A stretch of 55,937 nt of DNA from Planctomycetota bacterium (GTDB lineage: Bacteria; Planctomycetota; UBA11346). A program made the translations under genes and the position numbers. The notes under the pieces are model-generated. The model did no database searches and had not been told where the DNA came from. It saw nothing but the letters and a program-made list of their open reading frames with translations. The DNA is taken from NCBI GenBank assembly GCA_038231435.1, contig JBBRLJ010000034.1, positions 1 through 55,937 on the forward strand. Direction: 5' to 3'. This document shows positions 4,734 through 12,708 of this stretch, piece by piece (within the stretch, counting starts at the first letter, position 1; each line of letters opens with the position of its first letter).

Positions 4734-5140
4734 GGCCATCATCGAACGCGATGCCGGCGTTGGCTCACCGCTCGCGGTAGATGACTACCGCTTCGGGATC
4801 GCCGCCTTGGCCTCGCGCTCGATGATGGTCCTCGCGGTTCTTCGCGGACTCGAACCGGAGACTGGCCAGTAACGAATGCGAGGCTGGCGTTGGCTCACCG
4901 CTCGCGGTAGATGACTACGGCTTCGGGATCGCCGCCTTGGCCTCGCGCTCGATGATGCTCCTCGCGGTTCTTCGCGGACTCGAACCGGAGACTGGCCAGT
5001 AACGAATGCGAGGCTGGCGTTGGCTCACCGCTCGCGGTAGATGACTACCGCTTCGGGATCGCCGCTTTGGCCTCGCGCTCGATGATGGTCCTCGCGGTTC
5101 TTCGCGGACTCGAACCGGAGACTGACAAAAAGCGAATGCG
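4734..5140. repeat. Tandem array of three 130-bp units (ERIC/BIME-like ~97-nt hairpin plus 33-nt linker) and a partial fourth
   Basis: Units start at 4734, 4864 and 4994. The cores are nearly identical (single substitutions at 4919, 4958, 5066). Internal GCGGTAG/CTACCGC stem; outer arms 4734-4755 and 4809-4830 match 19/22. Confidence 0.9.
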
Positions 5141-5230: not shown

Positions 5231-6568
5231 TCAGGGCTTGAGCTTCACTTCAGGCGCGGATTGCCGGGCGACTTGTCCGTCGGAGCCGGCATCCATCTCG
5301 GCCATCAGCGCTTGGCGGCGCATGTGGGCGATGCGGGCGACCACGATGTCGGGAAAGCGTTCGAGGCGGGTGTTCCAGTGGGTGGCGATGTCGTTGAAGT
5401 AGGCGCGGGCGAGGGCGATGCGGTCCTCGCAGTCGATGAGCGAGGCGTGCAGGGCGGCGAAGTTGCCTTGCGCCACGAGCTTGGGATAGGCCTCGGCAAC
5501 GGCGGTCAGGCGCGGCGACGCCGCCAGCAGATCCGGTCCCGGCGTGCCGGGTGGCGTCACCAGCAGCTGCGAGCGCATCATCGCGACGCTCGCCTGCGCG
5601 CCGGCCTCGTGCGCCGCCATCGCCTCGACGATCGGCACCAGACGGGTGATCAGGTCGAAGCGGCGGCGCAGTTGAACCTCGATGTTCGACCAGCCCTGGC
5701 GAACGCGGTTGCGCAGTTCGACCAGGCCGTTGAAGACCAGCCACGACCAGCCGACGAGCCTGGCCGCGACATAGCCGCCGGTGGCGATGGCCGCTGCGGG
5801 GATCGCGTCCATGGGGTCGTGGTAGGGCGAGAGCGCGCCGGCGAGCCAGGCCGAGCCGCCGACGGCGATCAGCCACGCACCGATCTGCAAGGCCAGCGCC
5901 GCCCAGAAATAGCCCTTGGCCACCGCCTGTTCGCCCTGCACCGAGATCACGAACATCGGCGTGTCGCGATCGTAGGCGATCTCGGCGGCGGCGATGTCGT
6001 CGCGTTCGCGCGCATGCCCGAGGACGTAGAGCTGGGCTCCGAGCGGTATGATGGTCTCGTGGAAGCGCCGGCGCATGTCCGAGTTCGAGATCGCCTCGTC
6101 CGGACCCTTGGCGTAGTAGAGCGCGTCGCCTGGCTCGCATTGCGTATCCAAGGACGTGCTGCCGACCACGCGTGCGCCTGCGGGATCGACTCGCACCGCG
6201 CCGGACTCGTCGGCGAGCTCGAACAGGCACTCCTCGCCGCCGCTGGCCACCGTGGTCCAGCCTGATTCGTGGCGGGTGCGCGTCTGGGTGTTGCCCTTGG
6301 AATCGGTATAGGTCTCGCGCACGGTGCGCGACCAGTGCTCGTCGACGCTCCAGCGGTAGTGCACGCAGCGTTCGCCGGCGAGGTACGAGATCAGCGGATG
6401 CGCGCAGCGCGTTTCGGCGACGACCTCGACCAGGCCGATGAACACGCCTCCTGGATGCGAGGTGGGCAGATCGCGTATCAGGCGCCAGCGGCGTTCGTGG
6501 CGAGCCGAGAACAGCAGCAGCACCAGCGCGATCGCCGCGATGCCGGCAAAACCCCAGTGCGGATCCAT
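5231..6568 (-). CDS. LemA family protein with N-terminal GIDE-like membrane domain
   Basis: C-terminal FNGLVELRNRV.QGWSNIEVQLRRRFDLI..L and EAYPKL...EDRIALARAYFND...FP (LemA). N-terminal TM + IRDLPTS..GLVEV...FELADESGAVRVDP (GIDE-like). Confidence 0.8.
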   Translation of the reverse strand: MDPHWGFAGIAAIALVLLLFSARHERRWRLIRDLPTSHPGGVFIGLVEVVAETRCAHPLISYLAGERCVHYRWSVDEHWSRTVRETYTDSKGNTQTRTRHESGWTTVASGGEECLFELADESGAVRVDPAGARVVGSTSLDTQCEPGDALYYAKGPDEAISNSDMRRRFHETIIPLGAQLYVLGHARERDDIAAAEIAYDRDTPMFVISVQGEQAVAKGYFWAALALQIGAWLIAVGGSAWLAGALSPYHDPMDAIPAAAIATGGYVAARLVGWSWLVFNGLVELRNRVRQGWSNIEVQLRRRFDLITRLVPIVEAMAAHEAGAQASVAMMRSQLLVTPPGTPGPDLLAASPRLTAVAEAYPKLVAQGNFAALHASLIDCEDRIALARAYFNDIATHWNTRLERFPDIVVARIAHMRRQALMAEMDAGSDGQVARQSAPEVKLKP

Positions 6569-9048: not shown

Positions 9049-10374
9049 ATGCCGCCGATCGAGACCATCGCGAAGCCGATGCCCGGCACGGGCCCGGGGG
9101 CTGCACCATCAACCGAAGTCGACATCCAGCGCGTCTACGATCGTGCGGCTCGGCGCCTCCTGCCATTCTTGTTCATCTGCTACGTCGCGAACCACCTCGA
9201 CCGCGCCAACCTCGCCTTCCTCAAGACGCCCCTGAAGGCCATCGGCATGGACGATGCCGCGTTCGCGCTCGCGGTGGGCTGCTTCTATCTCGGCTATGCG
9301 CTGTTCGAGATACCCAGCAACCTGGTGCTCGCCCGCGTCGGCGCGCGGCGCTGGATCGCGCGCATCATGATCAGCTGGGGTCTGGTCGCCTCGGCGATGG
9401 CACTGGTAGCGACGATCGCGCAGTACAACGGCCTGCGTTTCCTGCTCGGCGCCGCCGAGGCCGGCTTCTATCCCGGCGTCATCCTCTACCTGACGCGCTG
9501 GTTCCCGCCCGAGCGGCGCGCGCGCGCGACGGCACTGTTCCTGACCTCGATCCCGCTCGCCTCGGTGATCAGCGGCCCGCTCACCAGCGAGTTGCTGCGG
9601 CTCGATGGTGCCGCGGGTCTTTCGGGCTGGCGCTGGGTGCTGCTGCTCGAGGGCCTGCCGCCGATCGTGCTCGGCATCGCGGTGCTGCGCTGGCTCCCCG
9701 ATGGGCCGGGCGACGCCCGGTGGCTGGCGCCGGCCGAGCGGGCGGCGGTGCTCGCCGACCTTTCGCCGGCCGCGGATGACGAGCATTCCTTCGTACGCAG
9801 CCTGCGCGACCCACGGCTGTGGATGCTGAGCGGGCTGTACTTCCTGCTGGTGATCGGGCTCTATGGCGTGACCAACTGGCTGCCGCCGATCATCCGCTCG
9901 CAGCCGTTCCTGGCCCACGCGCCGGAGCAGGCGATCGGCTGGCTGGTGGCGGTGCCGTTCGCCTGCGCCGCGGTGGCGATGGTGCTGGTGGCGCGCTCAT
10001 CGGATCGACGCGGCGAGCGGCGCTGGCATACCGCCGCGACTGCGGGGGTGGCGGCGGCGGCGCTGGCCATGGCCGCATGCGTCCCGCAGTCGCAGGCGCT
10101 GCTGATGATAGCGCTGAGCATCGCCTGCATGGGTGTCTTCGCCACGCTCGGACCGTTCTGGGGACTGGCCACCTCGGTGACGCGTGGCCGCGCCAGCGCC
10201 GGCGGCATCGCGCTGATCAACTCCATCGGTTGCCTGGGCGGGTACGCGGGGCCGGTGCTGTTCGAACGACTCGGGCGGCTGCACGGGCCGGTCCACGCCG
10301 GATACCTCGGTCTGGCGGCGTCGCTGGCGTTGCTGGCGATCACGGTGCCGCTGGTGCGGGCGCGCGGTAGATGA
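9049..10374 (+). CDS. MFS transporter (ACS family, organic/sugar acid)
   Basis: RRLLPFLFICY...LDRANL, FEIPSNL..RVGARRWIARIM, RFLLGAAEAGFYPG; about 12 hydrophobic segments. Confidence 0.92.
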   Translation: MPPIETIAKPMPGTGPGAAPSTEVDIQRVYDRAARRLLPFLFICYVANHLDRANLAFLKTPLKAIGMDDAAFALAVGCFYLGYALFEIPSNLVLARVGARRWIARIMISWGLVASAMALVATIAQYNGLRFLLGAAEAGFYPGVILYLTRWFPPERRARATALFLTSIPLASVISGPLTSELLRLDGAAGLSGWRWVLLLEGLPPIVLGIAVLRWLPDGPGDARWLAPAERAAVLADLSPAADDEHSFVRSLRDPRLWMLSGLYFLLVIGLYGVTNWLPPIIRSQPFLAHAPEQAIGWLVAVPFACAAVAMVLVARSSDRRGERRWHTAATAGVAAAALAMAACVPQSQALLMIALSIACMGVFATLGPFWGLATSVTRGRASAGGIALINSIGCLGGYAGPVLFERLGRLHGPVHAGYLGLAASLALLAITVPLVRARGR

Positions 10375-10398
10375 CGGGTGGATGTGGATAGCGGCGGT

Positions 10399-10478
10399 GA
10401 GGGTTCGAGGGCTCGAAGGTGGGAAGGCTCGAAGGTAAGAAGATAAGAAGGTAAGAAAGCTTGAAGGCGCGAGGGCGG
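10399..10478 (+). repeat. Ten degenerate 8-nt GA-rich tandem units
   Basis: gagggttc gagggctc gaaggtgg gaaggctc gaaggtaa gaagataa gaaggtaa gaaagctt gaaggcgc gagggcgg. Confidence 0.8.
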
Positions 10479-10531
10479 CCGGACGGCACGTCATGTGTGG
10501 GCGTTCTCCCCAGTGGCGTGATTGTCGCGAT

Positions 10532-10601
10532 CGGCATCGGCGTCAAGGCCGGGCCGCGGTGGCCGCGGTGGGCGGGGCGCCCAGCCTTGACTCCGATGCC
10601 G
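10532..10601 (+). promoter_or_regulatory. Leader hairpin with GTCAAGGC/GCCTTGAC stem upstream of four-helix-bundle gene 1
   Basis: CGGCATCGG-c-GTCAAGGC (10532-10549) pairs with GCCTTGAC-t-CCGATGCCG (10584-10601). Confidence 0.6.
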
Positions 10602-10628
10602 TGCGTGGTGGGGCGCAAGGAGAACGAC

Positions 10629-10976
10629 ATGCAGAGATTCGAGGATTTGGGCGTGTGGCAGCGGGCGGCGGGGTTGGCGGAGAGGATTCGGCAAGAGCGG
10701 GGACTGCAGCGCAGCGGCGATGGATTGCGCAGACAGATCCGTCGGGCGGCGACATCGATCGTCTACAACATTGCTGAAGGACATGGCCGCTCGTGCGATG
10801 GCGATTTCCATCGCTTCCTGGCGATCGCGGGCGGTTCGTGCGCCGAAGTGCAGGCGCAATTGCGCATGGCGCTCAACGCAGGCCTCATTGCCCGCGATCG
10901 TTTCATCGCGTTGCTCGACGAAGCGATCGCGATCGGTTTCATGATCCGCAATCTACGACGGCGTCTGACCGGGTGA
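10629..10976 (+). CDS. Four helix bundle protein (23S rRNA IVS-protein / bAvd-like family)
   Basis: FEDLGVWQRA...QIRRAATSIVYNIAEG.GR....F.RFL.IA.GS..E...QL; AAGGAG RBS. Confidence 0.9.
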   Translation: MQRFEDLGVWQRAAGLAERIRQERGLQRSGDGLRRQIRRAATSIVYNIAEGHGRSCDGDFHRFLAIAGGSCAEVQAQLRMALNAGLIARDRFIALLDEAIAIGFMIRNLRRRLTG

Positions 10977-11026
10977 GTCGAGAGGCGCGGCAGCCACCGC
11001 ACGCCCTCTGGGCGTGCATGTCCGGA

Positions 11027-11368
11027 TCACGACGCCCAGCGTCGCCGAAGGGCGCCGAGCATCCAACCGATCTGCTGGGCGGTGTCGATGAGGTCGAGGA
11101 AGGCTTCGCGGTCGATGTACCCGCAGGCATACGCGCGACGCAGCTGGCACTGCGCTTCCGCGCAGGAACCATTCGCGATCGCGAGGAAGTGCGCGAACTG
11201 CGGAGCGCTACCGCGCTCAGAGCCTTCGGCGATGTTGTCCGGAATCGATGCCGCTGACCGCTGCAACTGCGACGCCGCATCCGCCCGCATCCGCCGCGTC
11301 ACGATGTCCACCGCGATCGCGAAATCCTGCGCCTTCTGCCACACGATGAGTCTTTCGAACCGAGCCAT
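11027..11368 (-). CDS. Four helix bundle protein (second paralogue, convergent)
   Basis: FERLIVWQKA...QLQRSAASIPDNIAEGSER....F.HFLAIANGSCAE..CQL; AAGGAG RBS. Confidence 0.9.
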   Translation of the reverse strand: MARFERLIVWQKAQDFAIAVDIVTRRMRADAASQLQRSAASIPDNIAEGSERGSAPQFAHFLAIANGSCAEAQCQLRRAYACGYIDREAFLDLIDTAQQIGWMLGALRRRWAS

Positions 11369-11412
11369 GGTTGTGCTCTCCTTCGCAAAAAACCCAGCGA
11401 AGGAGCGCAGCT

Positions 11413-11472
11413 GTCAAGGCTGCGAACCGCGGTTCCTCCGCGGCGATCGGCGCCCCGACGATCGGCCTTGAC
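11413..11472 (-). promoter_or_regulatory. Leader hairpin with GTCAAGGC/GCCTTGAC stem upstream of four-helix-bundle gene 2
   Basis: GTCAAGGC 11413-11420 and GCCTTGAC 11465-11472, the same 8-bp stem as upstream of gene 1. Confidence 0.6.
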
Positions 11473-11528
11473 TGCGAGCACGTTCGCTACGATCGCGAAT
11501 TCGAGGAGAGCCCCACAGAAACCGCGCC

Positions 11529-11580
11529 TCCTCTATGTCCTCTTCCCTCTTCCCTCTTCCCCCCACTCCTCTTCCCTCTC
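11529..11580 (-). repeat. GA-rich 7-nt tandem repeat (GAAGAGG x4 plus degenerate units)
   Basis: Plus strand reads cctcttc-cctcttc-cctcttc...cctcttc; purine-rich on the sense strand of gene 2. Confidence 0.75.
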
Positions 11581-11820
11581 GCTCGCTCACGCATCCCTCG
11601 GCCAATCCCTCGATATCCAGCCGTTCGCCGATCCTGCCAGCATCGGCGGTGCCGCGCGCGAATAGCGTCGGATCGTGTGCTTTGGGCGTCACGTGGCGTC
11701 ATCAGGGGAATGGGGCGCGTGCCGACGCAGACAGGGTCGCATGCCGGGAGAGAGATCCCCGCGATGGGGCCGGCGATACAATCAGGGCTGGAGGGCGCCC
11801 ACCGGCGCCGCACACACACC

Positions 11821-12708
11821 ATGAGCACGACCCGCACCGGTTCCTTCCCCATCGGCTTCCGTCGCGGTTGGAGCGACTGGCAGAAGGATCTCGACGGCCT
11901 GATCCGCTTCGCCAAGACCAGCGGCTTCGAGGCCATCGACGTCGGTCCGTTGCCGAAGGCCGAGCTCGAGCGCATCGTCGCCGGTGGGCTGAAGATCGGC
12001 ACCATCGACCTGATCGGCCCCTGGTCCGACCTCGCCTCCTCCGACGCCGGCAAGCGCGCCGCCGCGGCCACCAAGAACGCCGAGTACGTGGCGTCGGTGG
12101 CGCACTTGTGCGCGAACTTCTTCACTGTGATCATCCCCGAGGACCACGCGCGCAAGCGCGCCGAGAACTTCAAGCTCGCGGTCGAGGGCTACGGCCAGCT
12201 GTGCGCCGCCATGGTGGCGAGCAAGACCCGCATCGTCATCGAGGGCTGGCCCGGCGGCGATCCGCACCTGAGTTCGCTGGCCTGCTCGCCCGCCGACTAC
12301 CGCGCCTTCCTCAAGGAGCTGCCCGCGGCGAGCGCGTGCATCAACTTCGATCCGTCGCACCTGGTGCGCATGGGCGTCGACCCGGTACGCTTCCTCGGCG
12401 AGTTCGCGCCGCGCGTGCGCCACGTGCATGCCAAGGACACCGAGATCTCGCCTGAGGACCTCTACGAACACGGCTGGTCGCAGCCCGCCACCTTCGCCAA
12501 GGGCCACGGCTTCGGCGGCACCTACTGGCGCTACACCATTCCCGGGCATGGCCAGATCCGCTGGTCGCGTTGCTTCGACCTGCTCAAGCAGGCCGGATAC
12601 GCCGGCATGGTCTCGATCGAGCTCGAGGACGAGAATTTCAACGACAACACCGCCGCGGGAGAGCAGCGCGGCTTGACCGCTGGCCGGGATTTCCTGATCT
12701 CCGCCTGA
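11821..12708 (+). CDS. Sugar phosphate isomerase/epimerase (xylose isomerase-like TIM barrel)
   Basis: IVIEGW, INFDPSHL, HVHAKDT, IPGHGQIRW, VSIELED metal-binding motifs. Confidence 0.88.
   Translation: MSTTRTGSFPIGFRRGWSDWQKDLDGLIRFAKTSGFEAIDVGPLPKAELERIVAGGLKIGTIDLIGPWSDLASSDAGKRAAAATKNAEYVASVAHLCANFFTVIIPEDHARKRAENFKLAVEGYGQLCAAMVASKTRIVIEGWPGGDPHLSSLACSPADYRAFLKELPAASACINFDPSHLVRMGVDPVRFLGEFAPRVRHVHAKDTEISPEDLYEHGWSQPATFAKGHGFGGTYWRYTIPGHGQIRWSRCFDLLKQAGYAGMVSIELEDENFNDNTAAGEQRGLTAGRDFLISA

Follow-up and report, generated by a model that had tools for sequence, protein, structure and literature searches.

A tail-to-tail pair of four-helix-bundle genes in a Planctomycetota genome, each preceded by a predicted single-stranded-DNA promoter

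Promoters that act on single-stranded DNA, the subject of the Frpo/ssi literature (PMC9849209, PMC11541004), have so far been shown in the leading regions of enterobacterial plasmids. Class-2 promoters (klcA/ardA type) of pESBL were mapped by 5' RACE (PMC12672017). ssp2 is also reported to block second-strand synthesis, and Frpo transcripts are reported to be able to prime it (10.64898/2026.01.09.698686). On the F plasmid, the hairpin that precedes the antirestriction gene (class 2/ssp2) is adjoined by GCGAAGC and has a CAAGGG/CCCTTG core; boxes assigned from folding in this study read TTGCAT-15 nt-TAAGAT, with a paired T followed by a bubble. Antirestriction, DUF932, methylase and ParB genes are carried in the F leading region. 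The second relevant system is the protein family PF05635. ORF-bearing 23S rRNA intervening sequences contain tandem heptamers upstream of an ORF which is apparently unexpressed (PMC4990558). PF05635 is reported to be structurally homologous to Avd (PMC10053308) and has been reported in cas loci (PMC3936711). Further literature consulted comprises PMC13478746, PMC8700078 and PMC2864571. A literature search, with most subscription journals outside its coverage, returned no paper that ties the PF05635 family to single-strand promoters or to tail-to-tail gene pairs.

The locus described here lies on contig JBBRLJ010000034.1 (C34) of genome G000. All coordinates refer to the window, the whole stretch of 55,937 nt that was analysed. 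Two four-helix-bundle genes (PF05635/TIGR02436) stand tail to tail with 50 bp between their stops, gene 1 at 10629..10976 on the forward strand (115 aa) and gene 2 at 11027..11368 on the reverse strand (113 aa). The two proteins are 46% identical and were assigned by HMM matches to PF05635 (89.9 and 99.8 bits, cut-off 33.8) and to TIGR02436 (86.9 and 94.5 bits, cut-off 24). In a tandem-repeat scan, module A is bounded on its outer side by an 8-mer array of GAAGGCTC/GAAGGTAA words (10399..10467, forward strand; 10405-10467 as called by the scan), which stops 161 nt before the gene 1 ATG, and module B by a 7-mer array (11539..11579, reverse strand; GAAGAGG in the sense of gene 2), which stops 170 nt before the gene 2 ATG. 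As mutual inverted ends the outer arrays do not stand out (left by right duplex -38.7, shuffles -44.9 +/- 5.0); complementary arrays are visible by eye at solo copies in relatives. Hairpin A (10500..10625) folds on the reverse strand, the template of gene 1, with arms 10532-10554/10579-10601 that are 91% complementary. Hairpin B (11372..11510) folds on the forward strand, the template of gene 2, with core arms 11413-11420/11465-11472, and its span takes in the complement of the ribosome binding site (11378-11383). Both leaders contain the arms GTCAAGGC/GCCTTGAC, at 10542/10584 in leader A and at 11413/11465 in leader B, and both are more stable than shuffled sequences (DNA z -4.5 to -6.4; 0/200 shuffles as good). 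A Shine-Dalgarno sequence AAGGAG precedes gene 1 at 10617..10622 (forward strand), potentially pairing with TTCTCC at 10504-10509, and gene 2 at 11378..11383 (reverse strand). By HMM match, the host genes outside the unit encode an MFS transporter (9049..10374) and a xylose-isomerase-like TIM barrel (11821..12708), both on the forward strand. The first-pass annotation had described the converging paralogues 50 bp apart, the arrays, the stems with shared arms and the AAGGAG sites, and all of these were borne out. It had also proposed the 9-mer TCGCGATCG as a shared signal. This word is indeed present in both leaders; it occurs in 694 copies in the genome, is found five more times within the two ORFs taken together, and it is shifted by 9 nt relative to the hairpin between the two leaders. 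Being out of register, it is not a shared element.

We read each hairpin as a predicted single-stranded-DNA promoter, so that exposure of either strand would lead to transcription of one four-helix gene; the probability of this reading is put at roughly 0.58. The conserved hairpin letters make more sense as a template-strand promoter; the far arm carries a -35/-10-like pattern. In hairpin A, the predicted -35 box TTGACG (10541..10546) and the predicted -10 box GACAAT (10521..10526) lie on the reverse strand, 14 nt apart. In hairpin B, the predicted boxes TTGACT (11468..11473) and TACGAT (11488..11493) lie on the forward strand, again 14 nt apart. Since the genes are tail to tail, this gives one predicted promoter per strand. 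Once the template strand comes free, its far arm would fold back to act as the non-template strand. RNA polymerase would then see a paired TTGAC, pairing up to -12 and an open stretch from -11 to -7. The transcript would begin a few bases ahead of the Shine-Dalgarno AAGGAG and have a short leader without the anti-Shine-Dalgarno letters. In duplex DNA the boxes are directed away from the gene, and the Shine-Dalgarno sequence would be masked in any read-through RNA, so the gene would be off twice over in the duplex state. Like Frpo transcripts, the four-helix transcript could in addition prime second-strand synthesis.

The letters behind this reading were counted across the family. With four of 115 leaders excluded because their anchors were poor, and with duplicates collapsed, 100 distinct leaders were obtained, whose template-strand far arm has the consensus TTGACN-14 nt-nAnnnT. 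An A at -11 together with a T at -7 is found exactly 14 nt after TTGACN in 96 of the 100, a count that, like the other family counts, ignores kinship between leaders which are not independent. Other spacings of the -10 pattern fit 0-4 of 101 leaders, and all 16 assessable leaders of G000 have the -11A/-7T pattern. Position -12 is T in 54/100 and G in about 42/100. The A at -11 and the T at -7 are Watson-Crick paired in only 2 and 8 of 100 leaders. The six pairs just above them are paired in 82%, compared with 44% in shuffles (maximum 50%), and the helix shows compensatory changes in which the near arm co-varies with the far arm. Far arms retain the TT of the -35 box in 99/100 leaders, near arms in 89. 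In family leaders cGNAg triloops, reported to form unusually stable DNA mini-hairpins (PMC13037366), lie on the template strand in 99 cases and on the sense strand in 7. Two further counts gave 115 vs 0 and 146 vs 0; this bias is absent in the leaders of G000 itself (1 vs 2).

Part of the same evidence fits an RNA leader, which would hide the Shine-Dalgarno sequence in read-through mRNA and be bound or opened by the Avd-like protein, or be cut by RNase III as rRNA intervening sequences are. Folded as RNA, the sense strand is the more stable one (-78.8 vs -71.3 and -87.3 vs -78.9 kcal/mol). G-T wobbles favour the sense strand by 103 to 46, with 84 of them from one position that forms a conserved sense-strand U-G pair in 84/100 leaders, and far-arm letters able to pair with the Shine-Dalgarno sequence are found in 98/101. 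Avd itself is a positively charged pentamer that acts with RNA (PMC6182149). The present proteins differ from it in being near neutral (K+R 9-15, D+E 10-13). An RNA leader accounts neither for the -11/-7 spacing of the bases left unpaired (A and T) on the other strand, nor for the strand bias of the cGNAg loops, nor for the recurrence of the core before ArdC/KlcA/DUF932/RadC genes (see below). Moreover, RNA tetraloops are rare on the sense strand (cUUCGg 3, GNRA 5) and no Rfam family reaches threshold. We regard the RNA leader as possible, if unlikely, as the whole explanation. The proposal of an autoregulatory RNA-protein pair is not supported as the main reading, since the conserved letters fit a template-strand promoter better; an RNA-level lock may still operate beside it.

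Some observations also count against the single-strand promoter reading. The usual sigma-70 spacer is 15-19 nt, and the 14-nt spacer falls short of this range. A 1-nt bulge on the opposite arm is missing in nine G000 leaders, the type of gene 1 included. The G at -12 in about 42/100 leaders, the missing triloop bias in G000 itself and the scarcity of the -10 pattern at hairpins beside IS elements also weigh on this side. The conserved G-U pair and the sequestration of the Shine-Dalgarno sequence also fit RNA control. Furthermore, the copies occupy ordinary chromosomal intergenic sites and not leading regions.

Measured against the plasmid promoters, the leaders have the long template-strand stem-loop directly before the gene (DNA z -6.4 for hairpin A and -5.6 for hairpin B), a CAAGG/CCTTG core, and far-arm -35/-10 boxes that point to the hairpin base; the spacer between these boxes is short, and a bubble opens at -11. 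Across the family GNA mini-hairpins occur, and homologous hairpins precede antirestriction-type genes. The differences from ssp2 and its class are that many chromosomal copies exist here, between host genes such as liv, MFS and isomerase genes and with no oriT or leading region, that the gene is of the four-helix-bundle type, that the spacer is an atypical 14 nt rather than 15, and that each unit has two opposed copies and flanking 7/8-mer arrays. Beyond the core, no sequence homology to ssp2 could be aligned.

A search pattern for the core only, including neither the -10 box nor the gene, matched at least 127 stretches of genome contigs and at least 123 of metagenome contigs. Among the matches listed, titles name Acidobacteriota, Pseudomonadota, Planctomycetota and others. 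Among the genome contigs, a four-helix gene lies downstream of 31 of 126 distinct hairpins among the matches listed; some of these repeat family genomes already counted, and the 31 were kept out of the family leader totals. For the remaining hairpins, again among the matches listed, 70 downstream ORFs were scanned and 26 had a Pfam hit, of which 19 are DUF932, ArdC, RadC, antirestriction (KlcA-type), SymE or methyltransferase genes. We take ArdC, RadC and SymE to be of the same kind as the genes of the F leading region. The metagenome set gave 45 Pfam hits for 77 scanned ORFs among the matches listed, 35 of them of the same kinds (with ParB) and a further six of them four-helix genes. The -10 pattern nAnnnT is found at 14-16 nt in 18/19 (genome) and 30/35 (metagenome) hairpins before such genes, 48/54 together. 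It is rarer at hairpins beside IS elements (7/17) and at others (28/76), and control spacings gave 5/95 and 4/95. A conserved version of this promoter before a multi-copy chromosomal gene, shared with antirestriction genes in several phyla, would widen the mechanism. At three loci, two successive genes each follow a hairpin of their own and both hairpins are oriented alike, an arrangement also seen in plasmid leading regions (KlcA+DUF932 in L199, DUF932+RadC in L231, ParB+DUF932 in L443). The same core was also observed directly after IS110 transposases (L201, L216, L219, L225, L265) and within or adjoining IS21-like elements (L204, L218, L238, L243, L263, L271); in these IS-linked hairpins the -10 box is weaker or 16-nt-spaced.

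The boxes could also be an ordinary duplex promoter that fires outward and gives rise to antisense RNA or to transcription of a neighbour. Some IS21-like elements do have the same boxes with a 16-nt spacer, facing the next IS gene. At the present locus the spacer is 14 nt and the boxes face the repeat arrays only, the window contains no sigma-70 site with a 16-18-nt spacer between 10300 and 11830, and a duplex promoter does not need the complementary near arm that co-varies. Such an outward promoter is very improbable.

With the 23S rRNA intervening sequences (S23p/IVP; Xcc0516, PDB 2GSC), the unit shares the protein family, upstream heptamers and a protein apparently not made from an ordinary transcript. 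Xcc0516 is also the nearest structure for the products of genes 1 and 2 in a PDB search, which returned no sequence match to Avd for either protein. A single-sequence AlphaFold model is all-helical and weak (pTM 0.39). The unit differs from the intervening sequences in lying between MFS and isomerase genes instead of in an rRNA helix, in having a promoter-like hairpin of 130 nt and two genes, and in having outer arrays that do not pair specifically into an ORF-enclosing stem. The promoter reading would date the synthesis of the S23p/IVP protein, namely only while its DNA is single-stranded. In contrast to the setting of Avd in diversity-generating retroelements, this genome (88% complete) contains no reverse transcriptase, by the absence of a PF00078 match, and the proteins are not strongly basic. 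The unit is not a diversity-generating retroelement. The radC RNA motif (RF01754), named after radC genes, gives a weak match on the gene 2 template strand through shared UCAAGGCUGC and CGCGGUUC letters; it scores 20.1 bits against a gathering score of 40 and was not found in 20 related loci.

A profile search of G000, at 88% completeness, found 17 PF05635 genes, 12 of them tail to tail, so that the pair is not the one-off it was first taken for. The leader is present at all 16 of these genes with intact upstream DNA, which upholds the earlier view of repeat, hairpin and gene as a conserved module. Three pairs share the A+B build, the present one on C34 and those on C13 and C25; in each, the A end has the 8-mer word and the B end has GAAGAGG. 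Over all copies outside C34, the 8-mer word class marks the A end on C13, C25, C6, C30, C23 and C28, and the GAAGAGG word marks the B end on C6, C13, C25 and C28. Other copies carry other array words, so that GA-richness is not a general feature as had been supposed. At two further loci (C6, C47) one gene has been lost, and three gene-less remnants retain two ends (C28 36.4 kb, C14 82 kb, C25 46.3 kb). Between copies dS is 0.4-1.1. Mean dN/dS is 0.17 for the gene 1 type and 0.19 for the gene 2 type (five copies each). Both genes are under purifying selection. Such selection on scattered, old copies suggests that the four-helix protein is likely to help the unit spread, via a single-stranded stage.

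The copy on C13 is an insert of ~1.4 kb between livK and livH. In eight relatives this gap measures 14-24 nt (three), 88 and 138 nt (two), or holds a gene-less 8-mer hairpin (one) or other inserts (two), and the leader is absent from the gap in all eight examined. The liv site is an empty orthologous site for a sister copy. That the unit moves, as had been proposed, is thus supported by the many copies at unrelated sites and by a sister copy at a site that is empty in relatives. Inspection by eye revealed no target duplication at the liv-site copy. The DEAD-box/fabD-type (C50) and xylA (C23) sites show no synteny in relatives, nor does the present site, as the MFS and isomerase genes are not adjacent in three relatives inspected; the C28 site is occupied by a different gene in G001. 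Contigs of five DNA runs contained no circle junction and no empty allele, and the joints seen match relic copies elsewhere in the genome. Taken as a whole, the locus is a real, recurring mobile unit with what is predicted, from its letters, to be a known promoter type in an unexpected setting.

Hairpins and arrays might instead be DNA ends that a REP- or IS200/IS605-like transposase recognises in trans; the pair would then be a composite with two such ends, and its promoter-like letters a binding site or a relic. Relics without a gene still have both ends, tail-to-tail pairs are far commoner than head-to-head ones, and related hairpins flank IS110, IS21 and other transposases. Against this, no mobilising enzyme was found in the genome: its lone Y1 transposase gene is flanked by repeats that differ from the cassette hairpins. 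In addition, neither a target duplication nor a fixed cut site is visible by eye, dN/dS values of 0.17-0.19 mean that the cargo is needed, and the -11A/-7T letters are near invariant. Ends of this kind, with no promoter function, are quite improbable.

The four-helix gene is present in 30 of 48 genomes of the family, with 0-30 copies each. A check proposed in the first-pass annotation, namely for the stem upstream of other PF05635 genes, gave a positive result: in the loci fetched, a set complete for 11 genomes with one locus each for the remaining genomes, a leader is found upstream of 115/131 PF05635 genes with >=200 nt of upstream DNA, a count that is partly circular because the profile was seeded from 76 of those leaders. 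Of the 16 leader-less genes, 14 fall in two branches of their own. The exact hairpin pattern is found in 0/377 sampled genomes of the phylum outside this family, and a plasmid DNA search gave chance matches only. Distant protein relatives occur on 16 plasmid records, and one viral contig has the hairpin pattern before an ORF that matches no family.

Tail-to-tail genes make up 19/28 in G056, 2/9 in G036, 2/13 in G049 and 0/72 in seven other genomes. Head-to-head orientation was observed for one pair, and the sole tandem case is a gene split by an IS. The two partners of a pair belong to distant branches and are not the same from genome to genome; tail-to-tail pairing therefore probably has several origins. 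Within one genome, most pairs are duplicates and not independent events. A head-to-head arrangement would cover both strands equally, which counts against the promoter reading given the single such pair. Strand coverage alone does not explain the dominance of tail-to-tail pairs, and leader plus array may serve as moving ends. A bolder proposal is a minimal chromosomal mobile element with a single-stranded DNA stage. Its folded ends would be promoters and second-strand priming signals, its sole protein would be an Avd-like pentamer made only at that stage, and tail-to-tail fusion would make either strand self-starting. We consider it speculative and rather unlikely; if true, it would provide a function for the orphan 23S-IVP family.

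Several further features of the genome were observed. G000 contains 113 clusters of 7/8-mer arrays, 101 of which lie away from any leader, and the clusters inspected include gene-less nested inverted hairpins between genes (e.g. C4 91926-92100, C25 4686-4990, C9 14170-14283). The Y1-type (RAYT-like) transposase gene (C28 22446-23483, L088) encodes 346 aa and has short GGACAGACAT-type repeats on both sides. In the flanks of 15 cassette or relic loci of G000 (~200 nt each side), C is depleted and G enriched on the strand that leads 5'-3' into the unit; at the present locus this footprint covers window positions 10300-10399 and 11580-11680, with edges placed by eye. The skew is +0.45 at 0-50 nt, +0.38 at 50-100 nt and +0.12 at 100-200 nt. 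It is positive in 28/28 flanks, compared with about -0.02 at the ends of 1646 ORFs, and is weaker (+0.15) at gene-less arrays. The loss of C extends into host codons (14/72 lost within 100 nt, 73/764 farther away) and proceeds by all three routes. Since it is not specifically C-to-T, plain cytosine deamination is unsupported as its cause. Elsewhere in the window, a 130-nt unit is repeated 2.9 times at 96% identity (4743-5124), and a gene for a GIDE-domain/LemA fusion lies on the reverse strand at 5231-6568.
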